The translations under genes and the position numbers were made by a program. This document shows, one piece after another, positions 983 to 29,851 of a DNA stretch of 60,339 bases. Source of the DNA: Elusimicrobiota bacterium (GTDB lineage: Bacteria; Elusimicrobiota; Elusimicrobia; Elusimicrobiales; UBA9959). Below the pieces are notes generated by a model that was given only the letters and a program-made list of their open reading frames with translations, searched no databases and was not told the DNA's origin. Position 1 is the stretch's first letter; each line of letters opens with the position of its first letter. The stretch lies in NCBI GenBank assembly GCA_016209085.1, contig JACQWV010000017.1:1-60339 (forward strand), in the 5' to 3' direction.

Positions 983-1813
983 ATGAATAATAAAAAAATC
1001 GTTTCCTCATTCAACAATCCAGTTCCTATAGACTGGCGATTAACCAATTATTTCCAATTGTCTATAACAATATTGGTTTTTTTAATGTTGGTATGCCTGC
1101 TGTCATTTCAAAAGGTCTGGGCCAATTCTCCGGAAATATCGGCTATGCTGGGAAATCCAATCACACCAAACCGCGATGGCGTGTGCGACACCCTTAAGAT
1201 AATCATTGAAAATCCCAGCGATGATGCTTTTGACGCCCAAATATTCGATATATCTGGGAAGAGCGTTGCTCTTTTATCATCTACGGAGGGATCTGGCATG
1301 ATAACTTGGGATGGGAAGGGTTTGGACGGAATGGTTCTTCCCGCTGATGTGTACTATTTAGTTTTTTCAACAGGCGCTATATGGCACGATGTTCGCTTCC
1401 TTTTTGTCAACCTCGGTCATCCGGGAGAAACTATTTCCCTGTATATTTCAGGAATCCTACCCGGAAGGAAAGAAATTGCTGTAGATGGTTTTTGTTTTCC
1501 AACCCTTGAGGTTCCGGTGGCAACCATTACTTTGGTTGTTCAAGATTTAGCGTCGAATTCTGTATCCGCTATAGGGGGGCGAACAGTTATCATCGCTTTC
1601 AAAACTGCACAACCAGGAATTGCAAACATAATAATCAGTCAACATGGAAATATTTTATGGAAAACCCAGAAGCGAACTGATGGCCGTGTAGTAGAGGTTA
1701 TTATCTGGGATGGAACAGACATAACCGGAACCAAGGTTTCCAATGGGAATTATATCTTTCAAATTGTCGCTCCTGGAATCGATGTCACAAAGACGGTGGA
1801 ATTGGTGAGGTAA
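983..1813 (+). CDS. Exported protein with two FlgD-Ig/T9SS-CTD-like domains
   Basis: Hydrophobic N-terminus ending VWA; PITPNRDG..IFDISGKSV..WDGKGLDG..VYY and WDGTDITG..NGNYIF..VELVR. Confidence 0.75.
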   Translation: MNNKKIVSSFNNPVPIDWRLTNYFQLSITILVFLMLVCLLSFQKVWANSPEISAMLGNPITPNRDGVCDTLKIIIENPSDDAFDAQIFDISGKSVALLSSTEGSGMITWDGKGLDGMVLPADVYYLVFSTGAIWHDVRFLFVNLGHPGETISLYISGILPGRKEIAVDGFCFPTLEVPVATITLVVQDLASNSVSAIGGRTVIIAFKTAQPGIANIIISQHGNILWKTQKRTDGRVVEVIIWDGTDITGTKVSNGNYIFQIVAPGIDVTKTVELVR

Positions 1814-1817
1814 AAAA

Positions 1818-2564
1818 ATGCAAGCACTTAATACATTTGCCAAGTCATCTGTAATTTCCAGTGTAATTGGAATGATGGTTTTTCTGACAGGGGGGGCTTT
1901 TTGTGAAGCCATTTTACTTAATGATGGAACAACAGTTTATGGTACGCTTAAAGGGGCAAGCGGGGGCGTTATTTCGGTAAACACAAGCGATGGTGAGATA
2001 ATTCTAACCAGTGATCAAATTACGACAATTACTTTTACTGATGTTTTGTTTGATTCGCCGAGGAATGTGTATGGTAAAAAGAAATCAGATAAGAAACATT
2101 ATTCAATAGGAATTCAATACGCGGGGAATATGGATAATAAATTTGACGCTGGAGTGGGTTTTTCCTTGTATATTCAACATATATGGGACTCGGGGTTGGG
2201 GATTCAAACTAACTTGGGGTTTTATAGCGCAGAAACTGGTGCAATTAAATCGGGAGAAACTGATATTGAAGTAGGGTATTTATTTCCCATTATTTTGAAA
2301 TACAGATTGAGCAATTCTGCCTCTGTAGAACCGTTTGTGGGTATTGGATTATCTTATGGCAATTATGAATCAAGCAATTATATAGGCTTCATGAACTATG
2401 AGGAAGATTCAGGCAGCGGATTATCTCCTTTATTAAATGCATCTATAGTGTTGGGTGCAAATTCTCCATTTCATCTTGTGTTGGATTTAAAATATTTTAT
2501 CAATTCGCACACATCAAAAGGCAATGCGTTGTTCAGGGGAATTAGCATGGCAATCAGTTGGTAA
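1818..2564 (+). CDS. Outer-membrane beta-barrel protein (OmpW/OmpA-TM-like) with small N-terminal beta domain
   Basis: Signal peptide; LNDGTTVYG N-domain; amphipathic strands (PFVGIGLSY, LVLDLKY); C-terminal Trp. Confidence 0.65.
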   Translation: MQALNTFAKSSVISSVIGMMVFLTGGAFCEAILLNDGTTVYGTLKGASGGVISVNTSDGEIILTSDQITTITFTDVLFDSPRNVYGKKKSDKKHYSIGIQYAGNMDNKFDAGVGFSLYIQHIWDSGLGIQTNLGFYSAETGAIKSGETDIEVGYLFPIILKYRLSNSASVEPFVGIGLSYGNYESSNYIGFMNYEEDSGSGLSPLLNASIVLGANSPFHLVLDLKYFINSHTSKGNALFRGISMAISW

Positions 2565-2589
2565 GCAACTAATTTCAGGAGGATTTAAA

Positions 2590-3858
2590 ATGACTAAAAG
2601 TTTATGTAAAGTATTTTTAGTAACGCTTTTTATTTCTGTTTACTTGTTTCAAATAGGGTTTAGTGAAATTGAAGCGGGCACGCAGTCAATAAAGGGTTTG
2701 ATTGACGGCATTATGGCCGCAAGCGGAAAAGAAGAAAAAAATGAATATCTGCGGCTTCTTAAAAAAGATACTCCGCAAACCAAAGAGGAAAAGGATCTGC
2801 TTATAGATTTACTGAAAGAAGAAGACGCAGATGTAAAATGTGTGGCCATGGAATTATTGGGGAAACTTAAAGAGAAAAGAGCGACCAAAAAGATAATTCG
2901 CAATTTAAAAGATAAAAGCGACAAGGTGAAAATAACGGCAGCTACGGTTCTAGGGGAAATAGGGGACGAACGGGCAATAGACGCTTTGTTGGAAGATTCG
3001 GAGCTTATGGTTCTTGAGTTCGGCCAGTGTCCGGTTGCAAAGATGGGTGCAGCGGCTTTGCCCAAGCTTGCCGACCTTGCCGGGCGCAAAAGCATTCTTG
3101 GGCTTTTGCCAAAGCAGGATAAAAAAAGCCGGAGAAGCCGCAAGGCTGCGACCTGTATCGGGCAAATCAGGGATGAAAAAGCGGTGCCAACGCTTATGAA
3201 ATTATTAAAGGAAGACGACGAAGAAGTAAAACTTGGTGCTATTGAGGCATTGGCTTCCATGAAAGTAAAAGAAGCCGAACCAGAATTTGAAAAGATGCTT
3301 AATCAGAAGTATAAAGATGAATTTATACCACGGAGAATTATTAGAACATTAGCTTTTTCCAACAGTGAAAAATATGTACCAAAAATCTATAAAATGATGG
3401 ATAAAGAACCATCTTTAAAATTTGGCATGGCTAGATTATTAGGCGAACTGAAAGAAAAGACTGCTGTTGAAAAATTAGAAAAACTAATTAATGATGAGGA
3501 TGAATTTGTCCGTCATGCAGCAGCAGTAGCATTATGGAGAATAACTGGCAAAGTCTATAAACATAAAAAAGGTTCATTTGAAGAAAGCTGGGACATTGAC
3601 TGGATAAGGCGAATTAATGATGAACTTGAAAGATTCAGGCTTGAATTGAATGATATTGAAAAGCACAGAGCGAGTGGAAGAATGAACGAACAGGTTTATA
3701 AATTTTATAAGGAACATCACACAGAAGAAAAATTTAAGAAATATAACTTAGAAAATTTAAGAAAAGCGGCTCAGAAAGAAGGTGCCTTGTTAGAATACAA
3801 TAATATAGACGAAGTATTGGGTGAAATCAAAAAAAATCCAGGCAAGTATTCCTGGTAA
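2590..3858 (+). CDS. Exported HEAT/PBS-lyase repeat protein
   Basis: AGGAGG RBS before ATG 2590; signal peptide; repeats VKITAATVLGEIGDERAIDAL, VKLGAIEALASM, VRHAAAVALWRI. Confidence 0.85.
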   Translation: MTKSLCKVFLVTLFISVYLFQIGFSEIEAGTQSIKGLIDGIMAASGKEEKNEYLRLLKKDTPQTKEEKDLLIDLLKEEDADVKCVAMELLGKLKEKRATKKIIRNLKDKSDKVKITAATVLGEIGDERAIDALLEDSELMVLEFGQCPVAKMGAAALPKLADLAGRKSILGLLPKQDKKSRRSRKAATCIGQIRDEKAVPTLMKLLKEDDEEVKLGAIEALASMKVKEAEPEFEKMLNQKYKDEFIPRRIIRTLAFSNSEKYVPKIYKMMDKEPSLKFGMARLLGELKEKTAVEKLEKLINDEDEFVRHAAAVALWRITGKVYKHKKGSFEESWDIDWIRRINDELERFRLELNDIEKHRASGRMNEQVYKFYKEHHTEEKFKKYNLENLRKAAQKEGALLEYNNIDEVLGEIKKNPGKYSW

Positions 3859-3887
3859 CGTATTAAAATATGATTGGAAATAATATC

Positions 3888-6800
3888 ATGAAATTGACCG
3901 TAAGTATTTTGTTGATAATTTTTCCTAATTTATGCTTTGCCTGGGATAGTTTGTACTGGGAAAATCACAGACATATGACTGATGACGCAATAAAAGACTT
4001 GGGTATAGTTGAATATCCTGATTTAAACATGTACAAAGGGGCGTATTTGATAGGCGATGGTGTTGTTGAAGGTAGCACGGATGAAAGTTCCCATGTAAAT
4101 CCTGCGACAGGCAAAGAATGGGAAGGACCGTACGAGGAATGGAAGCGGCTGGCAAAAGAGAACTATAAGAATTTTAATTTTACAGGTGCGTATGATTATT
4201 TGGGATTTTATATTCACTTAAAACAGGATATAAATGTTCCTGCTCATATAAGAACATGTGCCCACGGAATCTTGTTTCACAAGGGTTCAATTTTTTCAAC
4301 AGATGAGCTTGAAAATTTTGCAAATGACAATCCTCCTGCATTTTATTTTACGCCTGTTTCAACAAAGACTTCATGGAAAAACTTTAACCAGGAAGGTTTT
4401 TATTATTCTTACTGGCTTAATGATGAGATGGATGATGATAATCATGATGAAATCCCTTACGACCCAGATGATGATAAATTACAGGATGGTCCTAATGCGT
4501 ATAATATTACCACAACTTGGGGAACTTATGGTGGTGGGAATCCATATGATAATGATTATCTCCCAGGCAATGATGAAGGTAAGGATTGGTACAATGGCAA
4601 CCTACAGGATTCTTCAATAGCCTATGAGCAGTTATACAATGCTTCTACGGTTACAAAAGTGGAATTGCAAAAATTTTCAAAAGAACTTCCGCCTTTAATC
4701 AGAAATCTTAAAATAGAGCCATCTACCCAACTTATTCCAATTATAGATCCGATTGCCGGCAGCAAAATAACCTTTGAAATGCTTGAAAACAGGAAGCCAA
4801 GGGTTACGCTTTTTATAACAGTAGATTATCCTTATGATAATCCTGCGGCTAAAGGTATAATTGCCCCTGAATACCGCACAGGCAAAATAATTGATTTGCC
4901 TGCCGGAACTGATCTGCCATGGCAGCAAAATTTTGAAGTAACCTGGAACGGGATGATGGAAGATGGCGGATATCTTCTTGAGGGTTTTCACGATTTATAT
5001 GTCACGCTTAAAGATGTGGACGGGAATGTTTTCACTCATGAAAAATACACTTTTGAAATCCGCCTGCCTAAAATTCTAATCCAGCACAAAGAGGTTTTAA
5101 ATTTCCCTGCAAATGTTGAGATTCCGATATTAGCGGCTGTCACCCCTCTTGGCCAAAGAAGCATAAAAAATGTCCAAATTTTTTACCGCAAGGCGCTACT
5201 TGGCGGTTTTTATACGCCAACTCCTATGTCACTGACAGAAGACAATATTTATCAGGGTTTTATTCCTGCAAATGCAGTAACAGCTGATGGTATTGAATAT
5301 TTCATTGCAGCAGAAGATACAGAAGGCAATATAGAAACATATCCTATAAACCTTACTATTCTGCCAAATTCATATATTGGCCAGGCCTTAAAAGTTAGTG
5401 TTATTGAGGCAAGCAACGGTGGGTTGATAGTAAGGGGTGATGCAGATTCCAGTAATGATTCAACAATAATAAGTTTTTACTTAGGCAGGAATATATTTGT
5501 ATATGCGGAATTATACAAGGCTACAAAGGATTGGAAGTCAGCCTCAGGCGATCCGAATATTTTTGAACCTTCTGAAATTATATCTACATTAGGCGCTGCG
5601 TCTGGAATAGGAAAATATTCCGTAAATTATACTCCTTTTCCGCTGACGCCTGCTTCCAATTATGTTGTTGTTTTAAGGAATAGTATTGACCCTTCGGATA
5701 TAGTCGGTTATGGCCGCATCATAGTTTGTGAACCTTATTCAGGGCTTGCCGTTTCCCAGCCTGTTAACAATTGGGTAAGCGCAAGCATATCCGGGGTTCC
5801 ACCGGATTCTGTCAATTTTTTCAAGGACGGGTCGCTTTTTGCCTGGGATCCAGGAACGCTGACAAACAATGTCTTCAATGCTCAGGTAACTGGCGGGGTT
5901 TATACTGCAGCGGCGTATAAGACAATTTCTGGGAATGATATCCCCATGGGGCATTCTGCAGTTCAACCGATTTCTGGTCCAATGATAATTATTTCCCCAG
6001 TGCCTTCGCCTCAATATATCGGAAGAGCAATACCTGTATCTGTTAATGTCTATTCAGATGTTGGCCTGACACAAGTTACATTAACCGGCATTGATGTCAC
6101 AGGCGGATTAATATCTGTTATGCTTCAGAATGCCGGCGGTAGTCTCTATACAGGAGCTATCCCTCCACAACAGTCGCAGGGACAGGTGCAGTATTATTTC
6201 CTGGCTGTTGATTCTGCTGGCCGGCAAACCACAAATCCTATTGATTATGCCTTGAATAAATATTCGTTTAATGTAGTTCCTGATGTTACGCCGGTGCGGA
6301 TAACCAAAACAATCCCTGGAAATGGGGCGGTTGATATTTCGCTTTTAGAACCGGTCAACGTTTTCTTTGACGATGATATATTAACCAACACTTTAAATGA
6401 AAATACAATTTCCGTTATTCAGGAAATAAGCGGGAAAACGGTTGGTGTTAAAGAGATATCGTATTACCATGCTGAGCGGAAGTTGACATTTACTGCTGAT
6501 CTTATGCCAGATACAAAATACAAGGTCTATATTAAATCGGATGTGCGTGATTTAGGCGGGAACGGACTTGTTGATGGAACAGTGCCTAATCCTTGGACAT
6601 TCACCACAACCAAAATTCTGCCGCCTGCTATAACCGGTATTAGGCAAGACCGAAAACATTTTAACGAAAGCACTCAAAACATGATCTTTTCAGCGGATGT
6701 ATCCACGCATTTGCCGATTGCGCAGGGTTTTATCATTTTGAAGAACCCTCAAAGCCAGGCGGAAGTTAAAATAAATGTTCCAATTGAAAAAGAAGCCGGA

Positions 6801-9800
6801 ACTGGGCGGTTTCTATTTAAATGGGACGGCAAAGATAATGAAGGAAATTTTATTCCCGAGGGAGAGTATGTTCCGAGTTTTGAAGTTATTGACGCAAAAT
6901 ACGGCCTAGTAGGAAGTTCGGAATTTCAGACAGTGGAGATTTTGATTAAAACGAAAACTATATTAGAACACGAAAGAACCGAGAACGTGGTGTTTGGACT
7001 TTATGGAGATTACGAGTGGATTGACTTTCCGCAAATGATCCGGGTTGAGGTTGATTATGTACTTGATTTTGGAACAAGTAGAGTGGAGGTAGAGTATAAC
7101 GGAAATACCACAAAAATCGGCAACAAGGACGACAGTTTCTGGGGACGCACAGCTTACAAAAATATATATATACCCTCTGCGACAATGATAAAGATAAATG
7201 GCCCAGACTCATGTGTTTTTGGAATTCCTTGTGATGACGAAACTAAAATTTCCTATAGACATCATGCTTCCAATATTTATCCCAATGAATTTAATCATAA
7301 GATAAATACTTTAAACGATGTTTTCCGCTCTTTAAACATTTTACAGCGCAATGAATCGCTCACAATACCATTTAAAATAGTGCCAGTGCCGAATGAACCG
7401 GGGGGATGGCAGGTAACCCATATAAGCGTGATAATGCCGGCGGAAAATATGGATTTTGACAATAATCCAGAGGTTGTAACGACTGTTCCCGGGTACGTTT
7501 TCGAATCTCAGCCCACTCCCAAGATTGAGACTTCCATAGTAGTCCAGAATGTCAGCCCCCCGATTGAGCCGTTCCTCATGGACAGAACGCCGCCTGCGAT
7601 ATCCTTGGCCGCAAAGTCCCATTTTTCTCCAGTAATGGCAAAGAATCTTGATGTTTCTGCTGTTTTTCAGGATAACTTAAGTTTTCCATTGAAAGATGTG
7701 ACCTTGGAGATAGTGGATGCGGATGACAATCATGTTAAGACACTACTGCAAAAACCATCAAGCGAATACTTTTCACAGACTCTTGTTTGGGATGGACGAG
7801 GAAGCGAGGAATACAATAGTTCACAGATCGTGCCTAATGGGATATACAGAGTACGCGGCAGTGCGAAGGATGAAGCCGGTAACACCACGGTCCAAAGCAT
7901 AAATGTTACTGTGGATTCTGTCGCGCCTGTTGTTCAAAATCCATTATTAGTTGCGCTGCCAGGGATGCATACTAAACCAAAGGTTTTTAATGCAACAGAC
8001 CAGAAACTCAATCTTACACTGGACTTATCTGATAATTTATCAGACCAAGTTGATTTAAAGATAGTGTTTTCCGACGCTGCTCAAATAGTACGTGATATTT
8101 CTTTTAGAGTTACCACTATTCCGCAGCATTTCAGTTTTGAGTTTGACTGGAAGGATATACAAGGAAACTTTTTCCCTGATGGCACTTATGTTGTATCCCT
8201 GCATGTCCTTGACAAAGCAGGAAACGAAGCTGTGTTGTCATTGCCCGATTTCCGCGTTGATCGAACAGCATCTGAAGTTACAGCTAAATTCGTGGATAAC
8301 CTCATTTTTACCCCAGATGATGGGCCATTGGGGTTGGGGGATGGTAACCGGGACAATGTCACACTGAACTTTGAATTGGCGGATACAGCTCTTATAACGA
8401 TTGGCATCGAAGATATTATAGTTAGAACTTTATGGGAGTTTCCGTATAGTCTCAATTTTGTGAAATCAGGCGCGTTTACATGGGATGGCAAGGTCAACGG
8501 CCTGTTTGTCAGCGATGGGAGTTATATTTTTAGAATAAAAACAGTGGATGATGTCGGAAATACGGCATCTGCCGCTCTTCCTGTAATCAAGAATGCTGTT
8601 CCGGCACGCATAGTTTTTCCACCTCGAGCCCAATCGTCTGCCGCAGTAGGAGGTATGGTTGTCATAAAAGGAATAGCTTTAGATCCGGGAATCAATAACA
8701 CTGCTGACTTTAAGAATTACAAGGTGTGGTTCCGGGAAGGAAGTGGGATTGACTTTTCCCTTCCAGAAAACAATCCCACCGATCCAGACAATACCATTTG
8801 GAAGCCGATACCTGTACCTGCCGGGAATCAAAGTGCGATTGACCCTGCCTATCCCAATTCTAATATTTCACTGCGGGCAGTGGCGAATACAACACTGGCA
8901 ATTTGGGATACAAAAGATTTAGCACAAAGTGCATTATTTACCATTCTGCTTGTAACCACTGATGGTTCTGGAGTTTCAAGCTTTGATTTCCGTGAAGTAA
9001 CAATTGACCCAAGCATTGATACGACAGCGCCAGGAGTACACATTACTGCTCCCATAACCCCAGTCCCACCTGTTCAATTCAGCATCGTATCGGAATCATC
9101 AAGGCTTGAAATTGTATGGACTGTGGAACAGGTCCCGGAGAAAAAGGCGGATATCAGCATGGAAATCTTTAAACTCAACGACACTGTCGGACCCAAGGTG
9201 GGAACCATTGTTTTGCGACAGGAATTCATGGGGCAATCTACAGGAAGGACATTTTCCTGGGATGGGCGGAACTATTTGAGGAGGTTTGTGGAAACCGGTC
9301 TTTATAGAATTCGAGTTACTGCGAAAGACGCCGATAATATGGGGGTTACATCAGACGAAGTGGATGTGCAGGTCACCCTTCAGTTAATGGAACCCCTAAA
9401 AGTCACAAAGTTTCAATCTTCCGATTCGGTTATCTCGCCCGGCGGATCCTCCGTTATTACTTACTCTCTGTCAAAAGAGAGCGTTGTTACCATCAATGTC
9501 TTTGATTCAGAGAAAAAGTTAGTGGGAACGCTGGTTAATGGAGTGACGACACCCGGGGTGGCGGAACAGACGGTTGAGTTTAAAAGCCTCCAAGAAGGTT
9601 TGTTCACAATAACTATTGATGCCGTGGCCACCGATGAACAATCCAGTAAAGACTCAGGTTCTCTCTCCATCGCGGTTACTGGTGGACTAGGGGCTGCTGT
9701 TGCAGATATTACCTTTCCCCCCGACGGCTCAATTTTGCACGGTGTTTCCAATTATAATTGGACGGCCACTGGGGTTGGCCGGTTCTTTCCACGAGAACAG

Positions 9801-12800
9801 TTATCTTTGGTGGATACCACACAGCAAGATTTTGATGCTGGAACAAAATTGAATCTTGTCAGCACAGTTAGCGGGGATATTGTTCTTCCCCTTAGGGGAA
9901 AATTACTATCCTCAGCATTTGACTGGAGTCAAGGAACGTTTCAAGAAACAACAATTAGTAACGATTCTGTAAAAATGGTTGACGCTGTGGAAGTTGTCAA
10001 TGAGGCCCTGTATTTTGAGGGGAGTGCGGGGAGTGTGAGTATTATAAAATCAGCGTTGGGGCAGCGGTTTCAGGTAAGGAACACAACTAAAATAACAAAA
10101 GTTGAAGTGAAGATGGCGGGTGGTGGTCTGCCTAATAGATGGAACATACCATTCACAATACGGAAAGATGTAAATGGCCATATTGGGGATGTAATTGCAA
10201 CCATATATGTTCCTGTGGAGACACTCTCATATAGTTGGCAAATGATATCACTTGTTCCTTCGGAGCCGATCCCGGTCCAGCAAGGAGACTATCTCTGGGT
10301 GGTGGCACCACAACCCCCTGGAGACTGGCGGTGGTACGGTCTTGTTCAATGGGCAACGAATTGGCAAAGTGGGCACCCGGTCGCAGATTATCCGCGTGGC
10401 TACGCTTATTTACAGGGGCAGTACGATTCCGCATTTGATTTCCAATTTAGGGTTTTCGAATTGAGTGGCGCTACTGAGGGAACATATGTCAGCGCACCCA
10501 TAGATACTCAGGTAGAAGAACCTCTTTGGGGAAACTTTACTGCCGATTTTCAATCTAACGAGCAAACCCTTAATTTTTTTGCCCAAGTAAGAAAAAATGA
10601 GGCAAGTTCTTGGAGTGAAGAGTTCATTCTAACACCGGGGATATCGATTGAGGGGCTGCGAGAGAGGTTTATCCGACTCGTTGCTCGATTCGCAAGAGAA
10701 AACCTGACAAAATCCGCCTTACTTAATAGCGCCAGCATCAACTGGCGTGTTCCTAAAGGCACCTTTATTTCACAGAAAAGAAGTGTAGACAAACATATCA
10801 TTCAGTGGGATGACTTCCGAGCAACTGATATTCCAATATATCCAGGAAGCATTGCCTATTATTTCAAAAGTGCGCCAACAGAAGCCGAACTTGAATCGGC
10901 GACCTGGACAGGAATTTTACCTGGCTCATTCCTTGACATATCTAATGCCAATCAACATATTCAATGGAAGGCGGACATGATGACATCGAGTTTCTCCGAT
11001 TCACCGGCGATTCAAGATGTAAGTATTTCATATACCAGGAGAGGGGTTGAGCAAGAGGAAATTTGGAAAAGTCAAATGGATCCGGTATTAGAAGATGGAA
11101 GGATCACAAGCTTCAGTAACGAATTCAATAATCGAGATGACCCTACCTTCTTTATTAGAGACTCGCAGCCCCTTATCATTGCCTTGGCCTACCCGGCTTC
11201 AATTCCGCCCATAGATCCAACTTTAAGGGATAAGATGACTTTTTTTAGCACCAACGGGCAAATCACTGACAATCCGTTCGTAGCGGTTGACGCAGATGAA
11301 TTAGGGTTTGGATGGAGTATTAACCTCTATTATCCTGACGGAACCCTTAACCCGGACCTATTTATTGATCGGCTTCTGTCCAAAGAATCTAACACAAATC
11401 ATGACGCAACAGGGATTCCAATTGATACCGATGATGAATTCAGGGTGAGGATTGCTCCTGGAGCCGCACCAAAATCCTTTATAGAATTAAAAGGCAATAC
11501 GTCGACAAATAGCCAAGGGTTCAAAAGCTATTCTCTTTTCTACAAGAAGCTTGGGGATATAACTTCTCGTTCCATACCGGTCCAGAGCCCGAACAAACCT
11601 GTAACCGGCAACGGCACTCTCGGTTTCTGGGATGTTACCGGTCTCAATGGTGAATTTGTGCTTAAGCTTATCGTTTTGGATGCGAATGGGACAACCGAGG
11701 TAATCCGCAACATTACAATTGGGAAGTCCGTACTAGGAGGACAAACCGCAGGACCGCCAATATATGTGAATAGTTCTTGGAACAAGGCCTATTTAGAATT
11801 TCCTAATAACTCTCTGGCGGAATCTACCATTATTACAATCACTCCAGTCCGTATTGAAAATACTGGTATCGCCATCAGTAGTACTATTCCCCAACCAATC
11901 GGAGCCGCCTATGATTTACAACCAAGGGGGATTAAATTTGTTGATCCTGAAAACCGACCTGCATATTTGACTGTTCGGTTTACCAGCGATGAACTGCTGG
12001 GAATTGATCCTGGCCAACTCACTATTTATGAAGTTCTAAGTGACGGGACTGTTCAGCCATTGGATGCGAAAGTAATATTTGATGAAAACGGCAATGGTAA
12101 GTTTGACCCTGAAGAAACTGCTACTATAACAAGTCCTGTTCGCCATTTTTCCTATTACCTCATTATACAAGAGGTCATGCCTCCAGTTTTTGACCCAGTG
12201 CCGAATTTAACCGCCCAGAGCTCTGCTATCCTGAGTGGAAAATCTGAACCCAATTCACTGATTGAAATTTTTTTAAATGGAGCGCTGATTGAAACTGTTC
12301 ATGCCGACAACCAAGGGAAGTATACTGGTGTAAAAGTGAATCTGATTGATGGAAAAAATATTATTAACGCGAAAGCGACAAGGATTTTAAATGAAAATTG
12401 GCGTAGAGCAAGCGCTTTTTCCCCGCCGTTAATCATTGAAAGAGATGCAAATTTGCCTGAAATCAGTATGTTGGCAATGACACAGACTTTTAAACCCCAG
12501 CTTGGAGAAAAGGCAAGATTAGATTATTCAATGACAAAAATTGCAAAAGTTTATAGCTTTGTGGAAACCAGCGATAGTGTCATTATTGCCCATTTGATTG
12601 ATGGAACCACACAATCAGCTGGTAAACAGTATTGTGAATGGAATGGTGTAGTGGATGATGGGCCATTGGCCACTGGCGGGTCTTATTATTTTTCCTTGAC
12701 CGTCGTTGATGCAGCGAGCAACACTGTATCTGCAAAATATGGACCTTTTGAGTTGATAAAAGATACTGTTGGTCCTACAACACTGGCTTTAATAGGAATG

Positions 12801-15800
12801 CCAAAGTATGAGGATGAACATCTATATATATCAACCAACACACAAATTTACTTCTCTGTTCTTGATGATTTGATGGGGTTTGGCGATCATAAGGGTTTCG
12901 GTGTCGCTAAAATTAATTACGCGATAGACGGCAGCTCTTTTATTAATTACCACTCTTCGTTTTCAATCGTGTCTCAGGGAACACATACCATATCGTTTTA
13001 TGCATATGATGTAGTTGGCAATACAGAGGTAGTTCAATCTTTGAATATACTTGTGGACAATTCCGCGCCGATTACAAATTTAATTGCAACCGGCAAACAA
13101 TACATTAGTTCAGAATTGACCCTCTTTGTTTCCAGTAAAACATTATTGGGACTTTTAGCAACAGATCCTCAAATCGGACAATATCATGGTAGTGGAATTT
13201 TGTCAAAGGAATATGGGATGGAACCATTAATAAACAATTTAATAAATTATGTTTCCACATTTTCCATGCAGGACGGACAGTATCTTATCAAATACCGCAG
13301 TATTGATAATGTGCTGAATATGGAAGATATTAAAAAACTTACTGTCTCTGTGGATGATTTGGAACCTCTAATAAATCTCAGTTTTGACAAGGAAATATTG
13401 CGCCTTCCTAATGGCAAATATCTTATAAATTCAGAAAAGGGGATATTAAATATAGAAGTCAATGATCAACCAAGTTTTGGTTGTGGAATTGCAAACATAA
13501 AATTGGGTTTAGATGGAGTTTTTAAAGATATTCCAACAACATTCAGTCAGGAATTAGATCTAGGACCGCACAAAATAAATATAATTGCCGTTGATAATTT
13601 GGGTAATAGGTCTGAAAAAGATATAGAAATTATTATTGGCGATCTTACACCGCCGACCTTGACATATCCACTGGACAATTTCATCACTAACAAATCTTCT
13701 GTAACTTTCCGGTGGAATTACCCCACAACTTATTTCTATTCTTTGTCAGAATGTGAACTCATAATAGAAACGAGTCCAGATTCCAGTACCTCAACTTTTA
13801 CGCATTCTGTGTCATCTCAAATAACGGTCTCAGTGCTATTTAATGACCCTGGAATTTCAGTCCAAGGCCTTGAAATGTATGATGGAGGCCTGCGTCTTAT
13901 AACCGAACGCCTCCCGGACCACTTTGAGGGGACGCTGGAAGGCACACTAACCACGCCAGCAATAACATTGCCATGGACAGTTGTGGGTATAGGTGGTTTT
14001 ATATCGGTTCATGAACTAAACGATGGTGAAATAATTCATGAGTTTAGTTATGACGGGACTAATTATAGACCCGTTTCAGAACTAGGCGCGATACAACCTC
14101 CCCCAGGTGGCTCAATACGATTTAGAAGTAAACTAAAACGTTCAAATCTTGAAGAAATCAGTCCGACACTTAAGGATATACAATTTACTGTCACTTATAT
14201 GTTTCAAGAGCCTAAGACATACTGCTATAGAAAATGTAATTGGTTTAGGTGTTGGTGGGAATGTCATACTGTTTTGGAATGGGTGAGGAAATATGAATCT
14301 AAAAATATTGCTGCAGTTGATTCTAATAATATTCTTGTTGACCTACGAGTAAAAGATACTAACGTTGAACTTATAACGGAATATATAATGAACCAATCAA
14401 CAGGATCAATTATAGGAACATGGCTAAGCCCCCTTTTGAAAATTCCTGATACTGCTTACAGACTTTCAAATTTTAATGCTGATTTTAAATTAAATGAGGG
14501 ATATATTATATTTGAATTTACAACTGATGGGATTCAATTCAAGCCAATTCATTTACTGGGTCCATTGATTTTTTCTGAGAATGACAGTTTTATACAATTT
14601 AGAGCCACTCTTATACGAGATAATCCAAATCACATGAGCCCGATTTTTCATGAAATTTCTTTCAACTTTGTTCTGCCTCCACCTACGGAAACAATATTTT
14701 CATTACCTGAAGAAGGCCAATATTATTGGAAAGTGCGTTCCATTGATTATTTTAACAGAACCAGTAATTTTTCTGAAGAAAGAAGCGTAGTTTATGATAA
14801 AACACCACCAGAAATAATCATTTCTTCACCACGAGTAAATGACAAATATGTTGTAGGTCAATCAAGTATTTCTGTTCTGTTTAATATCCAAGACAATATG
14901 GATCCAATACCTAAGATTTTAGCGATTTTGCGACAGATAACGGACTACGGTGCCCCTCGTGGTGAACGGCAGGATTATCTCTTTGTGTCTTCGGGCATTT
15001 TGTTAAGTCCTATGGATTTGGACGACGGTTTATGGGAATTATTGGTGGAAGCCAGAGATTGGGCTGGGAATATTTCCACAATGACTAGTGGTGGTTTTGA
15101 GGTAATACATGACACAATGGCGCCGAGGAGTGAACTGACAGTAACCAGTGAAGGAATAAGATATGTAACGGCAAAAATCTCATGGACTTTAACGAGCATT
15201 GACGATTTGCTGACAGAAGGGGACGGAATTGGATTAGGAGTGAAGAAGCAGAGGACAGAGGTTAGAGGTGAGGGGATAGAAAAAGAAATAATTTTTAAAA
15301 ATCTATATCCGAAACAGGGAGAAATATTCGTTTCAACATGGACATTAAACTCAATCTCAGCCTTTCAGGATGGAATTTATTATTTAGATTATAATGCAGA
15401 AGATATAATAGGTAATATAGAGCAGATAAAAACATCAACAATAGCGGTTGACAACACAGCGCCGAAAACGAAATTTCAGGTGGAAGGTGTCCGGTTTGAG
15501 GAGTCAGGAAAAATATACATAAACGAAAATTCAAAAATAGTTTTAATATCAACAGACCCGGTTGTAAACGACGTTTCAGTCGGCGTTTCTTCAACAATTT
15601 TTAAAATTGATGAAGGAATTTTCAATGAATATGTTTCAAGTATTAGTTTAACAGAAGGAAAACACAAAATCATTTATTACAGCATTGACAAATTAGGAAA
15701 TCAGGAATTAGAAAAAACCATTGAAATTTATGTAGACGCAACCCCGCCCATAACCTCTATTATTCCGAGCGGAACCGTGAGAACGGACGGTAATTACTAC

Positions 15801-17876
15801 ATTCCCAAATCAGGGGACAACGCAGGCGACCCCTATGCTCCATTGTGGTTCAGCTACAAGCTTTCAGCCTATGACCCTGTTATAAAAGAAGTATCCTCAG
15901 GCCTTTTCTTTTCAGAATACAGAACCATTGAACTTAATTATTTCGGAACAAAGCCTTTAGGGCCAAGCCCGCAGGATTTGGGAAAACAGTTCCTGCCTTT
16001 TAATTATGAAAATTCAAACAGTTCATTCACCTTGATAGAAGGAATTCAGCGCATTGATTACAGAAGCAGGGACAATGTCTTAAATTTAGAACTTGCAAAA
16101 ACAACGACAATATATGTTGACGCAACCTCGCCTGTAAGCCAGATTGTATTTTTGAGCACACCTGCATCTCGTTCAGATGGACTTGTGATAAGTTCCAAAC
16201 TGCCAATGACAATATCTTCTGAAGACCAGATTATCAAAGGCGTAGCATCAGGTGTTGGCGCAAGTTATTTTCTTGAAAACAACACAAAAATTCTTACCTA
16301 CACCCGATACCCTGCCCCCAACACCCTGCCTTATTATATTTCTGCGACAATCCCAGACGGCTATATAGAGATAAAAGGCTATAGCATAGACAATGCGGGC
16401 AACAATGAAACCCCATTCGTAAAACCTGTTGTCCTTGATAACACAGCTCCTGACGCATTTATAATCAGCCCTTCAACCTCTATAAACAATGCCGGACTGT
16501 GCAAACTGCTATACGGGACAAACATAAAAATAATAGGCACAGTAACAGATACCGGCAGCCATGCGGATGGAAAAGAATTTGACCATTTTTCACAATACAT
16601 GCTTGAATACGGCTGGGGTGCAGAACCCTCATCTTACCAGATAATAATAACATCAAATCCTGAAAAAAGCCTCTTAGAGCAGGTTTTAGGAACATGGGAC
16701 ACAACAGGACTTTCAGAAGGCGTTTATACTTTAAGACTAAGAGCAAAAGACTGCGCCGGAAACGAAACCATAACCAGCATACAAGCCATAATATCTGGGC
16801 CGAAACTGATATTAAACTTAGGACAGAAAGGAAACGGCCCGGGCGAATTCAACAGCCCTTCATACATAGCCATAGACCCAATAAATCAGGATTTCTGGGT
16901 ATCAGACACAAACAATGACAGAATACAAAAATTTAATTCATCAGGAACATACATATTAGAAGTTGCAAGTTTCAAGTCACAAGACACAAGTAAAGGGAAA
17001 GAAAAAGGGCAGACAAAAGAAGATAAATTTAACAAGCCGACAGGTGTTGCGGTTGACAGCTCCGGTAATCTATGGGTAGCTGACCGGAATAATGACAGGG
17101 TTTTGAAATTTAGTTCAACCGGCGCATACATAACCACCCTTAATGCGCAATTAAACAAACCGCACGGGTTGGCAATAGATAAATCAGGAAATTTATTCGT
17201 AGCTGACAGAAACAACAATGAAATAAAAAAATTCAATCCTGACGGCCAATTATTGCTTACAATAAATACAGGACTAGAAATAGATTTCAATAAACCACAA
17301 GGCGCCATAGCAGTGGATGAGTTAAACCAGGTTTACATTACAGACAGGAACAATGACAGAGTATTAATTTATGATTCATCAGGAAATTTCATAAGACAAT
17401 TTCCCGCCGCTACCTCTTCAACCCCGCAGGTTGAAGTTCCAACCTACGGGGTTGCAAATCAATTCAATAAACCGGACGGAATATTCACAAATGCTTTGGC
17501 CTATGTCTATGTAGCAGACAGCAATAATTCCAGAATCCAGAAATTTGACCCTTACGGAAACACAGTCCTTGTATTCAATAAAGGTTTGAATGAAACAGAA
17601 AACCTGAATCACCCTTCAGGCGTGGCCATAGATTCAGAAGGAAACCTATTTGTAGTTGATTCAAACAATTCAAAAGTCAAGAAATACGGAGCAGAAGGCG
17701 AATTAATAATAGTGGCGAGTGGCGAGTGGTCAGTGGACGGCGAAAAAAATAAAAACAAAGTCAAGAAATTGATAAAGAAAATAGAAGGCGGAGCTATTCA
17801 TCATGCAAAAGGCATAAAAGCTTGGTCCAGATGGCACAGTTTTTACCAAGCCAATAGAAATATCTTTGCCTTATGA
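3888..17876 (+). CDS. Giant (~4,660 aa) exported multidomain protein: Zn-PLC/P1-like N-domain, FlgD-Ig and Ig-like repeats, ZU5-like domain, NHL repeats; C-terminus frameshifted
   Basis: Signal peptide MKLTVSILL..CFA then W; LGFYIHLKQDINVPAH; about seven WDG/WNG..G.Y-type motifs; D..P...GN.E Ig repeats; NHL repeats FNKPTGVAVDSSGNLWVADRNNDRV (~16810-17690). Alternative start 3870. Confidence 0.85.
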   Translation: MKLTVSILLIIFPNLCFAWDSLYWENHRHMTDDAIKDLGIVEYPDLNMYKGAYLIGDGVVEGSTDESSHVNPATGKEWEGPYEEWKRLAKENYKNFNFTGAYDYLGFYIHLKQDINVPAHIRTCAHGILFHKGSIFSTDELENFANDNPPAFYFTPVSTKTSWKNFNQEGFYYSYWLNDEMDDDNHDEIPYDPDDDKLQDGPNAYNITTTWGTYGGGNPYDNDYLPGNDEGKDWYNGNLQDSSIAYEQLYNASTVTKVELQKFSKELPPLIRNLKIEPSTQLIPIIDPIAGSKITFEMLENRKPRVTLFITVDYPYDNPAAKGIIAPEYRTGKIIDLPAGTDLPWQQNFEVTWNGMMEDGGYLLEGFHDLYVTLKDVDGNVFTHEKYTFEIRLPKILIQHKEVLNFPANVEIPILAAVTPLGQRSIKNVQIFYRKALLGGFYTPTPMSLTEDNIYQGFIPANAVTADGIEYFIAAEDTEGNIETYPINLTILPNSYIGQALKVSVIEASNGGLIVRGDADSSNDSTIISFYLGRNIFVYAELYKATKDWKSASGDPNIFEPSEIISTLGAASGIGKYSVNYTPFPLTPASNYVVVLRNSIDPSDIVGYGRIIVCEPYSGLAVSQPVNNWVSASISGVPPDSVNFFKDGSLFAWDPGTLTNNVFNAQVTGGVYTAAAYKTISGNDIPMGHSAVQPISGPMIIISPVPSPQYIGRAIPVSVNVYSDVGLTQVTLTGIDVTGGLISVMLQNAGGSLYTGAIPPQQSQGQVQYYFLAVDSAGRQTTNPIDYALNKYSFNVVPDVTPVRITKTIPGNGAVDISLLEPVNVFFDDDILTNTLNENTISVIQEISGKTVGVKEISYYHAERKLTFTADLMPDTKYKVYIKSDVRDLGGNGLVDGTVPNPWTFTTTKILPPAITGIRQDRKHFNESTQNMIFSADVSTHLPIAQGFIILKNPQSQAEVKINVPIEKEAGTGRFLFKWDGKDNEGNFIPEGEYVPSFEVIDAKYGLVGSSEFQTVEILIKTKTILEHERTENVVFGLYGDYEWIDFPQMIRVEVDYVLDFGTSRVEVEYNGNTTKIGNKDDSFWGRTAYKNIYIPSATMIKINGPDSCVFGIPCDDETKISYRHHASNIYPNEFNHKINTLNDVFRSLNILQRNESLTIPFKIVPVPNEPGGWQVTHISVIMPAENMDFDNNPEVVTTVPGYVFESQPTPKIETSIVVQNVSPPIEPFLMDRTPPAISLAAKSHFSPVMAKNLDVSAVFQDNLSFPLKDVTLEIVDADDNHVKTLLQKPSSEYFSQTLVWDGRGSEEYNSSQIVPNGIYRVRGSAKDEAGNTTVQSINVTVDSVAPVVQNPLLVALPGMHTKPKVFNATDQKLNLTLDLSDNLSDQVDLKIVFSDAAQIVRDISFRVTTIPQHFSFEFDWKDIQGNFFPDGTYVVSLHVLDKAGNEAVLSLPDFRVDRTASEVTAKFVDNLIFTPDDGPLGLGDGNRDNVTLNFELADTALITIGIEDIIVRTLWEFPYSLNFVKSGAFTWDGKVNGLFVSDGSYIFRIKTVDDVGNTASAALPVIKNAVPARIVFPPRAQSSAAVGGMVVIKGIALDPGINNTADFKNYKVWFREGSGIDFSLPENNPTDPDNTIWKPIPVPAGNQSAIDPAYPNSNISLRAVANTTLAIWDTKDLAQSALFTILLVTTDGSGVSSFDFREVTIDPSIDTTAPGVHITAPITPVPPVQFSIVSESSRLEIVWTVEQVPEKKADISMEIFKLNDTVGPKVGTIVLRQEFMGQSTGRTFSWDGRNYLRRFVETGLYRIRVTAKDADNMGVTSDEVDVQVTLQLMEPLKVTKFQSSDSVISPGGSSVITYSLSKESVVTINVFDSEKKLVGTLVNGVTTPGVAEQTVEFKSLQEGLFTITIDAVATDEQSSKDSGSLSIAVTGGLGAAVADITFPPDGSILHGVSNYNWTATGVGRFFPREQLSLVDTTQQDFDAGTKLNLVSTVSGDIVLPLRGKLLSSAFDWSQGTFQETTISNDSVKMVDAVEVVNEALYFEGSAGSVSIIKSALGQRFQVRNTTKITKVEVKMAGGGLPNRWNIPFTIRKDVNGHIGDVIATIYVPVETLSYSWQMISLVPSEPIPVQQGDYLWVVAPQPPGDWRWYGLVQWATNWQSGHPVADYPRGYAYLQGQYDSAFDFQFRVFELSGATEGTYVSAPIDTQVEEPLWGNFTADFQSNEQTLNFFAQVRKNEASSWSEEFILTPGISIEGLRERFIRLVARFARENLTKSALLNSASINWRVPKGTFISQKRSVDKHIIQWDDFRATDIPIYPGSIAYYFKSAPTEAELESATWTGILPGSFLDISNANQHIQWKADMMTSSFSDSPAIQDVSISYTRRGVEQEEIWKSQMDPVLEDGRITSFSNEFNNRDDPTFFIRDSQPLIIALAYPASIPPIDPTLRDKMTFFSTNGQITDNPFVAVDADELGFGWSINLYYPDGTLNPDLFIDRLLSKESNTNHDATGIPIDTDDEFRVRIAPGAAPKSFIELKGNTSTNSQGFKSYSLFYKKLGDITSRSIPVQSPNKPVTGNGTLGFWDVTGLNGEFVLKLIVLDANGTTEVIRNITIGKSVLGGQTAGPPIYVNSSWNKAYLEFPNNSLAESTIITITPVRIENTGIAISSTIPQPIGAAYDLQPRGIKFVDPENRPAYLTVRFTSDELLGIDPGQLTIYEVLSDGTVQPLDAKVIFDENGNGKFDPEETATITSPVRHFSYYLIIQEVMPPVFDPVPNLTAQSSAILSGKSEPNSLIEIFLNGALIETVHADNQGKYTGVKVNLIDGKNIINAKATRILNENWRRASAFSPPLIIERDANLPEISMLAMTQTFKPQLGEKARLDYSMTKIAKVYSFVETSDSVIIAHLIDGTTQSAGKQYCEWNGVVDDGPLATGGSYYFSLTVVDAASNTVSAKYGPFELIKDTVGPTTLALIGMPKYEDEHLYISTNTQIYFSVLDDLMGFGDHKGFGVAKINYAIDGSSFINYHSSFSIVSQGTHTISFYAYDVVGNTEVVQSLNILVDNSAPITNLIATGKQYISSELTLFVSSKTLLGLLATDPQIGQYHGSGILSKEYGMEPLINNLINYVSTFSMQDGQYLIKYRSIDNVLNMEDIKKLTVSVDDLEPLINLSFDKEILRLPNGKYLINSEKGILNIEVNDQPSFGCGIANIKLGLDGVFKDIPTTFSQELDLGPHKINIIAVDNLGNRSEKDIEIIIGDLTPPTLTYPLDNFITNKSSVTFRWNYPTTYFYSLSECELIIETSPDSSTSTFTHSVSSQITVSVLFNDPGISVQGLEMYDGGLRLITERLPDHFEGTLEGTLTTPAITLPWTVVGIGGFISVHELNDGEIIHEFSYDGTNYRPVSELGAIQPPPGGSIRFRSKLKRSNLEEISPTLKDIQFTVTYMFQEPKTYCYRKCNWFRCWWECHTVLEWVRKYESKNIAAVDSNNILVDLRVKDTNVELITEYIMNQSTGSIIGTWLSPLLKIPDTAYRLSNFNADFKLNEGYIIFEFTTDGIQFKPIHLLGPLIFSENDSFIQFRATLIRDNPNHMSPIFHEISFNFVLPPPTETIFSLPEEGQYYWKVRSIDYFNRTSNFSEERSVVYDKTPPEIIISSPRVNDKYVVGQSSISVLFNIQDNMDPIPKILAILRQITDYGAPRGERQDYLFVSSGILLSPMDLDDGLWELLVEARDWAGNISTMTSGGFEVIHDTMAPRSELTVTSEGIRYVTAKISWTLTSIDDLLTEGDGIGLGVKKQRTEVRGEGIEKEIIFKNLYPKQGEIFVSTWTLNSISAFQDGIYYLDYNAEDIIGNIEQIKTSTIAVDNTAPKTKFQVEGVRFEESGKIYINENSKIVLISTDPVVNDVSVGVSSTIFKIDEGIFNEYVSSISLTEGKHKIIYYSIDKLGNQELEKTIEIYVDATPPITSIIPSGTVRTDGNYYIPKSGDNAGDPYAPLWFSYKLSAYDPVIKEVSSGLFFSEYRTIELNYFGTKPLGPSPQDLGKQFLPFNYENSNSSFTLIEGIQRIDYRSRDNVLNLELAKTTTIYVDATSPVSQIVFLSTPASRSDGLVISSKLPMTISSEDQIIKGVASGVGASYFLENNTKILTYTRYPAPNTLPYYISATIPDGYIEIKGYSIDNAGNNETPFVKPVVLDNTAPDAFIISPSTSINNAGLCKLLYGTNIKIIGTVTDTGSHADGKEFDHFSQYMLEYGWGAEPSSYQIIITSNPEKSLLEQVLGTWDTTGLSEGVYTLRLRAKDCAGNETITSIQAIISGPKLILNLGQKGNGPGEFNSPSYIAIDPINQDFWVSDTNNDRIQKFNSSGTYILEVASFKSQDTSKGKEKGQTKEDKFNKPTGVAVDSSGNLWVADRNNDRVLKFSSTGAYITTLNAQLNKPHGLAIDKSGNLFVADRNNNEIKKFNPDGQLLLTINTGLEIDFNKPQGAIAVDELNQVYITDRNNDRVLIYDSSGNFIRQFPAATSSTPQVEVPTYGVANQFNKPDGIFTNALAYVYVADSNNSRIQKFDPYGNTVLVFNKGLNETENLNHPSGVAIDSEGNLFVVDSNNSKVKKYGAEGELIIVASGEWSVDGEKNKNKVKKLIKKIEGGAIHHAKGIKAWSRWHSFYQANRNIFAL

Positions 17877-18360
17877 CCCTGCAAAATTAGACGGAGCAAA
17901 AGAAGAAGATATAAGAATTGGCTGGTATAATCCGACAACAAACCAATGGGAAGAGATGGAAACCACGGTTGACAAAATTCTGAAACTTGTAAAGGCATGG
18001 ACAAACCATTTTTCAATTTATGTAGTAATGGCTCCTGAAATGCCGGTAGAAGAATTCCAGATGGGCGAAGTTTATGTATTTCCGAACCCTGCAAAAGGCA
18101 GTGAAAACCTCACATTCCACATAGAAACAGGAATTGCTGACAAAGTAAATATTAAAATATACACAGTATCAGGCAGACTGGCGTTAGACCATACAATAAC
18201 GCAAATGCCGCAGACAATAGACGACGGCAACGGATTAAGCTACGCGTATGAATACGCGTGGACAGAGAACATACCCAGCGGAATTTACTATTATTTAATA
18301 GAAACGGAAAAATCTGGACAAAAACTCAAAGCAAAAGGAAAGTTTGCAGTAATCAGATGA
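17818..18360 (+). pseudogene. Detached C-terminal part of the giant protein (second half of ZU5-like domain plus T9SS-type-A-like CTD)
   Basis: Frame opens after TAA 17815: KLGPDGTVFTKPIEISLPYDP..HFSIY..VYVFPNP..IKIYTVSGRL..SGIYYY..KGKFAVIR. No signal peptide of its own. Confidence 0.75.
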
Positions 18361-18395
18361 CCCCGTTAAAAAATCTTTAACGGGGATTATTTTTT
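18361..18395 (+). terminator. Hairpin CCCCGTTAAA-AAATC-TTTAACGGGG with T-tract; intrinsic terminator or REP-like
   Basis: Perfect 10-bp stem immediately after the stop at 18360, followed by ATTATTTTTT. Confidence 0.65.
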
Positions 18396-18418
18396 GGAAG
18401 GAATTCGGACTAATAAAG

Positions 18419-24647: not shown

Positions 24648-24692
24648 TAAAGAGAGATTATAAGGTGACAAGATGATAAGTAGTTGAAAATC

Positions 24693-25331
24693 ATGGAAGC
24701 CTTGTTTAATAAGATAAATGGTATATTAAAAGACGCGGTTGAAAATATCCGCATTATTTATTTTGAAAAAGGCGCGGGTCCCTTCAAAAAGCCTTTAATG
24801 TTCGCGGTTTCAGCCGTTCTTATCCTTTATTTGGCGCTTTATTCTCCGCTATCTTCAAAGGTCGCAAGAAAAAAATCCGAGGTTTACAATCTTGAAGCCA
24901 TAGCGGCGCATTATAATGATTACGAAAATGTCAGGACGAGGTTCATGGATTATCAAAAAAGGCTTCCCTCAATAAAAGACAAAGACGAATGGCTGAGCTA
25001 CATTCTCACTTCCCTGGCGCGCAAACACGGGATAGTCTTTGAAACTTTTTCCAGCCAGACTGAAGTCGAAATGGATAATCTGCTGATAGTCTCAAGAGAA
25101 GCAACCATGACGACTTCCTATTCCAAGTTAGGCAAATGGCTCAGTGAAATGGAAAATTCCAAGATTTTTATAAAAGTTACCGAGTTTAATCTTAAGAAAG
25201 ACGAGAATTTAATAGGAGCCGTAAAAGTCAGTCTTACTGTTTCCACCATATTCATGAAATACGCGGCTCAGGCCGGTTCCGCCGCCGGGGTTCCGGGTCC
25301 GGCAGACTCCGGCATGCCGGCTAATCCATAG
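24693..25331 (+). CDS. pilO: PilO/GspM-like protein
   Basis: TM plus coiled coil, RLP, SYSKLGKWLSEMENS..IKV; lies directly after PilMN. Confidence 0.75.
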   Translation: MEALFNKINGILKDAVENIRIIYFEKGAGPFKKPLMFAVSAVLILYLALYSPLSSKVARKKSEVYNLEAIAAHYNDYENVRTRFMDYQKRLPSIKDKDEWLSYILTSLARKHGIVFETFSSQTEVEMDNLLIVSREATMTTSYSKLGKWLSEMENSKIFIKVTEFNLKKDENLIGAVKVSLTVSTIFMKYAAQAGSAAGVPGPADSGMPANP

Positions 25332-25354
25332 TTAGCGGAATTGCGCGAAGCGAT

Positions 25355-26161: not shown

Positions 26162-26169
26162 ACTATAAT

Positions 26170-26220
26170 AGGCGAATAGGCGAAAAGGTGAAAAGGCGAA
26201 TAGGCGAAAAGGCGAGTAGG
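26170..26220. repeat. AGGCGAAW octamer array merging into the pilQ RBS
   Basis: aggcgaat aggcgaaa aggtgaaa aggcgaat aggcgaaa aggcgagt. Confidence 0.85.
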
Positions 26221-26227
26221 AGGCAAT

Positions 26228-27940: not shown

Positions 27941-28007
27941 ATAAAGCAGGTTAAGGTTCAGATTGAGGTTAAGAACAGCAGATTAAGGTTGAGAACTACA
28001 AACAAAA

Positions 28008-28064
28008 TGTAGCAGGCGAATTACTATTTGCCATTTTTTGCGGCATAGTAATGCCGCCGCTACA
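28008..28064. repeat. GTAG-type REP doublet (REPIN-like)
   Basis: TGTAGCA-GGCGAAT-TACT-ATTTGCC ... GCGGCAT-AGTA-ATGCCGC-CGCTACA; loops are complementary. Confidence 0.75.
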
Positions 28065-28099
28065 AACTCTTAACCTTAATCTCAATCTGCTGTGTATTT

Positions 28100-29842: not shown

Positions 29843-29851
29843 GACGCCCCC

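Follow-up and report, generated by a model that had tools for sequence, protein, structure and literature searches.

We have studied a locus within a stretch of DNA of 60,339 nucleotides from an Elusimicrobiota bacterium (assembly GCA_016209085.1, contig JACQWV010000017.1; the whole stretch is hereafter called the window), at which a gene for a HEAT-repeat protein is followed directly by a giant gene whose product begins with a domain resembling the zinc-dependent phospholipases C (PLCs). The window is contig C42 of its own assembly (G000), which comprises 2.35 Mb in 140 contigs and is 98% complete; its DNA is also present in four groundwater metagenome runs of a single study. A CTP synthase encoded in the window has as its nearest relatives proteins of Elusimicrobia/Elusimicrobiota MAGs only, at 66-78% identity. 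Four open reading frames (ORFs) follow each other on the + strand, at 983-1813, 1818-2564, 2524/2587-3858 and 3870-17876. With the HEAT gene counted from the ATG at 2587, the gaps between them are 4, 22 and 11 nt in order, and a strong intrinsic terminator is found at 18361-18385, where a 10-bp stem (5 of its pairs GC) leads into a T-run. This agrees with the four co-oriented, close-set genes and terminator of the original prediction, which was made from the sequence alone. All four gene products have a hydrophobic N-terminal segment, as judged by eye. The conserved unit is the HEAT gene and the giant only, that is, a two-gene module.

The HEAT-repeat partner is encoded by 2587-3858 (HEAT_2, E 1.6e-40) and is predicted to be periplasmic. 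Its ORF opens at 2524; the likely start at 2587 was taken from an alignment of orthologues, as were the signal peptides. The giant ORF as assembled (3870-17876) has 4668 aa, with its last 17 codons out of frame. Cleavage of its signal peptide (3870-3941) is predicted to leave the conserved Trp25 as the first residue, A24 and W25 being nearly invariant among related heads. The head itself, to which we assign a tri-zinc PLC/P1-nuclease fold from the evidence below, occupies residues 25-277 (3942-4700), and is followed by a FlgD-Ig-like domain (4716-5069) that is present in all family members. The latter is seen in the alignment consensus past an LPPL linker, and in a profile match that extends to position 380. 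A stalk of Ig-like repeats then runs from 5070 to 14708 (Big_5, Big_13, Big_3_3 and FlgD_ig in Pfam), in which Pfam matches nothing over some 800 residues (2001-2780); over the giant as a whole Pfam finds Big_13, Big_5, FlgD_ig and NHL. Beyond the stalk is a base (14709-17813) held in common with a second giant on contig C123 (70% identity, residues 3614-4651 against 2498-3531 by blastp), within which lies an NHL beta-propeller (16815-17690, E 3e-38). After a frame break at 17815-17823 come the remainder of a ZU5-like domain (17818-18075), recognized from an alignment with paralogues and a paralogue model and containing an invariant HFS at 18007-18015, and a C-terminal sorting domain (CTD) of the kind used in type IX secretion systems (T9SS) (18076-18360). 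All of these features are on the + strand.

A search of 1.84 billion representative sequences gave 102 clusters of head homologues at E up to 1e-3. The match begins near the N-terminus in nearly all of them, and most of the proteins are of ~420 aa, with a few giants. The single head protein searched against genome contigs returned no relative. In an alignment of 43 heads, Y108, H116, D120, P124, H126, H132 and E148 are invariant, and W25 (directly after the signal peptide), H33, D51 and E72 are nearly so. W25, H33, D51, H116, D120, H126, H132 and E148 are each kept in 24-26 of the 26 full-length heads whose loci are described below. The window head has all nine metal-ligand positions (W25, H33, D51, H75, H116, D120, H126, H132 and E148), as mapped to the numbering of PC-PLC.

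The head profile matched Listeria PC-PLC (8cqm) in the PDB with E 6.2e-5. An AlphaFold (AF2) model of the head, with a predicted local distance difference test score (pLDDT) of 78.9, has the all-helical fold of the PLC/P1-nuclease superfamily. Its three best fold matches are all PLCs: 8cqm (Z 11.2, root-mean-square deviation (rmsd) 3.9 Å over 168 aligned residues), 1olp (Z 11.0, rmsd 3.2 Å over 150) and 1ah7 (Z 10.8, rmsd 4.2 Å over 174). The top matches of a Foldseek search of the PDB were also all Zn-PLCs, with weak E-values (0.05 and worse). On the strength of the fold scores and the profile match, the modelled head is a member of the PLC/P1-nuclease superfamily that lies nearer to the PLC branch. 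The phospholipase-type head that had been proposed is thus borne out at the level of a Zn-PLC fold. Like the known Zn-PLCs (Bacillus cereus PC-PLC, Listeria PlcB and the N-domain of clostridial alpha-toxin), the head combines this fold with a first-residue Trp and H/D/H/H/E ligands. It differs from them in being only ~15-19% identical and matching no Pfam model, in the FlgD-Ig domain that follows it, together with a ~4,300-residue stalk in the window protein, and in that its latency would apparently come from the separate HEAT protein in place of a propeptide.

Is the HEAT gene regularly associated with the head? The head was sampled in 401 genomes of the phylum and is present in 50; we examined 26 full-length head loci of roughly 40. 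At 15 of the 26 a HEAT_2 gene lies immediately upstream (G000, G002, G023, G013 (twice), G363, G380, G379, G014, G163, G362, G319, G338, G349 and G169), and these loci span four families (f1, f6, f8 and f10), so that the linkage suspected at the one locus is a recurrent one. In G002, G023 and G013 the end of the HEAT gene runs 1-4 nt into the head gene. Nine of the 15 HEAT-linked proteins have at least 1,443 residues, four have 476-928, and two are fragments on short contigs. In the long ones the head is the sole part in common with the window giant.

Some related loci differ from this arrangement. Long proteins at G095:C42, G251:C84 and G402:C243 match only the first ~150 positions of the head profile and were treated as a different subfamily; their upstream genes match no Pfam family, and there is no HEAT gene there. 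In G342:C3 a HEAT_2 gene lies ~700 nt upstream of a giant that has no detectable PLC head. The HEAT partners of 808-912 aa (L021, L022, L024 and L064) carry a lipobox and an N-terminal extension of ~450 residues. Zn-PLC-like motifs are retained in this extension in G013 (L022, C341 498-3236) and have been lost from it in G002, G023 and G319, where it may be a pseudo-enzyme fused to the partner. The neighbours of short PLC genes lacking a HEAT gene (L026-L028, L073, L074, L076 and L077) include NlpC/P60 with a chagasin-type inhibitor, and PAP2.

The possible interaction of the two proteins was studied by co-folding residues 25-300 of the head and residues 28-423 of the HEAT protein, with an alignment supplied for each. 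Scores from the three runs were 0.78, 0.45 and 0.83, with a median of 0.78; each of the three controls scored 0.00. The pLDDT of the partners was at least 82, and at least 43% of the contacts agree between runs. Of the 157 solved complexes used in calibration 116 reached the mark, as did 2 of the 215 mismatched pairs, although this is only a rough guide here since own alignments were used. The result supports binding of the HEAT protein to the head, as the original prediction had envisaged. The predicted interface on the head is formed by residues 29-31, 70-76 (including E72 and H75) and 121 (beside D120); with these residues so near to the ligands, the HEAT contact would abut the metal site.

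Listeria PC-PLC, which is synthesized in proenzyme form, is reported to depend critically on the position of W1, one extra residue being enough to abolish activity (PMC10576769). In our set the 15 HEAT-linked heads each begin, right behind the signal peptide, with the conserved aromatic residue. Seven of the 11 heads with no HEAT neighbour have instead an insert of 15-45 residues, ending in K or R, before the conserved Trp. The HEAT protein may therefore replace the propeptide as the latency device. This reading is weakened by the other four of the 11 (G003, G385, G390 and G095), which have neither an insert nor a HEAT gene; evidently a free head is tolerated in some lineages.

The second giant in the genome (L043, G000:C123 18-14807; 3756 aa) has its last ~1,200 residues in common with the window giant, with 79% identity over the ZU5 domain and CTD. 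Its head is quite different, comprising Peptidase_M23 and DUF7619, and the gene upstream encodes a beta-propeller. Just before it is another pair, consisting of a beta-propeller and a short M23 protein of 346 aa. The M23-headed long protein is found in four relatives, and an orthologue of the propeller lies immediately upstream in both of those that have upstream DNA (G319 and G018, E 1e-114 to 1e-160), the other two being cut by contig ends. Thus the same base carries either a PLC head with a HEAT partner or an M23 head with a propeller partner. It follows that a head and its partner are swapped together, and the N-terminal head does vary with its upstream gene, as had been anticipated. The C123 giant also holds FG-GAP, Laminin_G_3 and NHL domains.

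An unnamed N-terminal head family is common to five giants of genus g4 (L177 and L181 in G342, and L175, L179 and L182). At both G342 loci the upstream gene overlaps, encodes 305-339 aa and matches nothing in Pfam, and this head with its upstream gene may constitute a third head-partner class.

To model the tail of the giant we took the C-terminal 240 residues of its intact paralogue, which gave a pLDDT of 83.6. Residues 1-134 of this piece match the ZU5 domain of ankyrin (3ud1 and 3f59, Z 11.8 and 11.4), and those from 139 to 240 the PorZ and PorU CTDs (Z 10.5). On the sorting domain of the window itself PF18962 (Por_Secre_tail) scores 27.3 bits against a cut-off of 27, in a frame that differs from that of the giant ORF. 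The HFS sequence is invariant in nine of nine ZU5 paralogues; in PIDD-type ZU5 domains and in Nup98 it is the site of self-cleavage, which it may be here too. Pfam, the conservation of HFS and the paralogue model support the earlier assignment of the tail as NHL, ZU5 and CTD. Zhang et al. describe an autoproteolytic role for ZU5 both in toxins and in large surface proteins that bear lipase domains (PMC3482391).

How might such a protein reach the cell surface? PorV-like genes are present above the cut-off on C24, C2 and C3 of the genome, and a PorV/UPF0164-like barrel gene lies directly downstream of seven or eight other ZU5 + CTD proteins (at C60, C120, C5, C24, C2, C31, C3 and C50, with Kelch, NosD beta-helix, PQQ and fn3 heads). 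Neither of the two giants has such a gene downstream. A SprA-like ORF of 1800 aa was found in the genome with E 5e-22, below the family cut-off. PF14349, PF01364 and PF12081 have no match in the genome; the control genomes were also silent, so that this is uninformative. The giant resembles type A CTD cargo of the T9SS, such as the giant adhesin SprB and the gingipains, in having a putative Sec signal peptide and a C-terminal beta-sandwich CTD, in belonging to the very large Ig-rich surface proteins, and in being encoded in a genome with PorV-like genes. It differs from that cargo in its host phylum, for which a T9SS is not known to be described, in the ZU5 domain with HFS directly before the CTD, in the coupling of an enzyme head to an upstream partner gene, and in that GldM and PorU were not detected. 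We found no substantive paper that joins Elusimicrobiota and the T9SS.

Having established the anatomy of the module, the fold of the head, its linkage to the HEAT gene and the co-variation of heads and partners, we can ask what the module does. We propose, with confidence a little better than even, that it makes a lytic-headed surface fibre and, along with it, a cognate partner in the periplasm by which the head is kept inactive within the producer. The binding seen in the models, the inhibition, the export route, the substrate and the target are what we infer in this scheme. Gene A (2587-3858) would provide the HEAT-repeat protein, exported by Sec. Gene B (3870-18360, one gene if the assembly break is discounted) would provide the giant, also exported by Sec, which would then be sorted by a T9SS-like route via its C-terminal ZU5 domain and CTD. 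With its sorting region at the C-terminus, the giant would be fixed at the cell surface by that end, with the N-terminus outwards. Cleavage of the signal peptide would directly expose the catalytic Trp of a PLC-like hydrolase, so that the head would have no zymogen form. The HEAT protein would bind the face of the head that bears part of the metal site, and may keep the head inactive or folding-competent during its passage through the periplasm of the producer. Once outside, the head on its long Ig stalk may attack phospholipid of neighbouring cells or debris.

The fibre might alternatively be no weapon but a scavenging enzyme. Its PLC and M23 heads would then break down phospholipid and the debris of cell walls as a source of phosphate, carbon or nitrogen, and the upstream repeat proteins would be periplasmic chaperones or holdases dedicated to very large cargo, and not inhibitors. 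ZU5 surface proteins with lipase or phosphodiesterase domains have been proposed to act in the degradation of extracellular polymers (Zhang et al., PMC3482391), most of the HEAT-linked heads are on long proteins, and a small genome of groundwater origin would be in keeping with such a role. However, the short M23 protein on C123 has its own propeller partner, showing that the partner follows the head and not the size of the cargo; on these grounds we rejected the idea that the HEAT gene is tied to cargo size. HEAT-linked heads are moreover also found on the proteins of 476-928 aa, and the predicted interface touches residues of the metal site. We consider scavenging doubtful as the explanation of the module.

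More speculative is an extension of the fibre-and-partner scheme that we would put forward only tentatively, as something rather improbable. Giant fibres with exchangeable envelope-lytic heads (Zn-PLC, M23 and others), each with a neutralizing periplasmic repeat partner, would be displayed by a T9SS-like route in the Elusimicrobiota, making up a back-to-front polymorphic effector-immunity system for contact killing or predation, in which self-cleavage at HFS frees or arms the fibre.

A number of observations weigh against the proposal of a lytic head held by a cognate partner. No Pfam family, Zn_dep_PLPC included, was detected in head residues 1-300 at E up to 1, and in most of the HEAT-linked heads the loop with the ninth ligand (H75) cannot be aligned. 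Eleven of the 26 heads have no HEAT neighbour, all of them in proteins of 379-477 aa. In a tree of 24 heads (two fragments having been dropped), 10 of these 11 fall in one clade with support of 100/99, and the HEAT label needs only two changes on the tree. The 15 linked loci therefore represent few independent events, and the linkage is a trait of a subfamily. Among the relatives of the base, of which 12 of 20 were examined, other giants carry Kelch, PQQ or unassigned heads, so that the class, taken together, is no weapon. Upstream of some of them are overlapping genes that belong to no assigned family. GldM and PorU were not found in the genome, in a search with uninformative controls, and SprA was found only below threshold, which leaves the export route uncertain.

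Lastly, the giant gene is frame-broken as assembled. Its ORF ends at 17876, and the ZU5 remainder and Por_Secre_tail are read in a different frame from 17818 to 18360. With two reading frames, 3870-18360 is not one gene in the assembly; the original prediction had overlooked the break. The intact paralogue on contig C123 continues through a stretch of 47 residues that is absent from the window. The DNA of the two giants is identical over 39 nt just 5′ of the break, after which ~140 nt of the ZU5 sequence is absent from the window copy. The genome holds at least 13 copies of the ZU5 + CTD module, five or six of them at contig ends; evidently this module breaks assemblies.

If the break were real, the giant would be a decaying pseudogene whose protein has no sorting domain. 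The break is indeed present in the assembly, and none of the public contigs listed bridges 17813-17937, although this shows nothing either way. A search of protein databases with the C-terminal 519 residues returned only the protein itself, the paralogue in the same genome and generic NHL proteins, with no independent intact copy. Public contigs over 17300-18400 are fragmentary, with loose ends at 17820-17822 in all four runs. One extends leftwards from 17822 and another rightwards from 17820, and both reach sequence outside the assembly that codes for the missing ZU5 strands, which may belong to another paralogue or strain. These ends lie exactly at the break, which itself comes right after the 39 nt that are identical in the paralogue, and the 14 kb before it is fully open. 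We conclude that the break is probably a mis-assembly and that a pseudogene is unlikely. In the event of mis-assembly the native giant would have ~4,880 residues.

It is very unlikely that the head is an S1/P1-type nuclease degrading extracellular nucleic acid. S1/P1 nucleases and Zn-PLCs have metal ligands in common and belong to the same fold superfamily, and the head model does match SmNuc1 (Z 7.6), S1 nuclease (6.5) and a plant bifunctional nuclease (6.5), with the next match at 3.4. The top three fold matches are nevertheless all PLCs, as are all of the significant sequence matches.

The remaining two genes of the four are neighbours outside the conserved module. The first (983-1813, + strand) encodes an exported protein of 276 aa with FlgD_ig/CHU_C-like Ig domains (CHU_C E 8e-9, FlgD_ig E 3e-8). 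The second (1818-2564, + strand) encodes a possible small outer-membrane beta-barrel of 248 aa (OMP_b-brl 21.7 bits, below the cut-off of 28.7) that is lineage specific; it has no orthologue among 60 family genomes, in four of which there are marginal matches (E 3e-4 to 8e-4) to its first ~85 residues only. The four genes had been read as a single cassette for export, in which the barrel would be the anchor and the FlgD-Ig protein an accessory, and close spacing on the same strand before one terminator would fit this, yet the idea is scarcely tenable given that neither gene has a homologue at any other HEAT-PLC locus fetched, that the same four genes were not found together in independent lineages, and that, where barrel genes of this genome do accompany other CTD proteins, they are of the PorV/UPF0164-like type and on the downstream side. 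The cassette had also been described as more AT-rich than its surroundings. This holds at 2-6 kb and 12-18 kb, where the GC content is 0.365-0.40, but not at 6-12 kb, where values of 0.42-0.45 overlap those of the remainder of the window (0.42-0.50).

Elsewhere in the window, positions 2-877 hold an ORF, truncated by the window start, in which an IS200-like Y1 transposase domain is combined with a helix-turn-helix of the DnaA_C family; a second Y1_Tnp ORF lies inside the CTD-protein locus on G000:C24. Directly past the terminator of the giant is a Wzy_C (O-antigen ligase-like) and TPR gene (18589-20931). A Wzy_C gene is also found upstream of a short PLC gene in G367, and could bear on the surface attachment of cargo. 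A type IV pilus or type II secretion system-like cluster with PilO, secretin, T2SSE ATPase, T2SSF and two N_methyl pseudopilins occupies 24684-33129. At 57007-60339 there is a near-bare Por_Secre_tail protein of 175 aa; the ORF after it, of 901+ aa and without a Pfam family, runs off the window.

By analogy, the module resembles a toxin-immunity pair, and its delivery part resembles T9SS cargo. A periplasmic repeat protein or lipoprotein neutralizes the producer's own envelope-degrading enzyme in the ankyrin self-protection of the Bdellovibrio Bd3460 type and in the Tle-Tli pairs of the type VI secretion system. The present module would differ from these in its export route, in the fold of the partner, and in tethering the enzyme to a fibre. 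The polarity had been described as the reverse of that of contact-dependent inhibition (CDI) and Rhs systems. The head is indeed N-terminal and the partner gene upstream, where those systems have a C-terminal toxin and a downstream immunity gene; but T9SS cargo and autotransporters are normally oriented in just this way, with the C-terminus as anchor.

In polymorphic toxins such as CdiA, Rhs and the TANFOR toxins of Bacteroidetes (PMC7073777), a large filamentous delivery part is common to paralogues with different enzymatic ends, and a small neighbouring gene varies with the enzymatic end; the base and the partner genes may be the counterparts here. The variable part of the giants, however, is thousands of residues and not a tip, and many sister giants bear binding heads and not enzymes. 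TANFOR toxins have been named as possible T9SS substrates (PMC7073777), and Imm-HEAT is a named class of immunity protein (PMC3482391). Giant genes have been described in predatory Omnitrophota, in a preprint that does not report the layout found here (bioRxiv 10.1101/2023.11.21.568195). A literature search, with subscription journals outside its coverage, found no described equivalent of the head and HEAT module.

With 102 representative clusters and no Pfam model, the PLC-like family deserves description in its own right. If the latency reading is correct, the HEAT protein would add to propeptides a third means by which a zinc phospholipase C is kept latent. If the wider proposal holds, T9SS-type secretion would gain a role in antagonism or predation beyond the Bacteroidota, and the rule of a head accompanied by its partner could serve to uncover as yet unrecognized lytic enzymes, together with the inhibitors of each, among the uncultured bacteria of groundwater.

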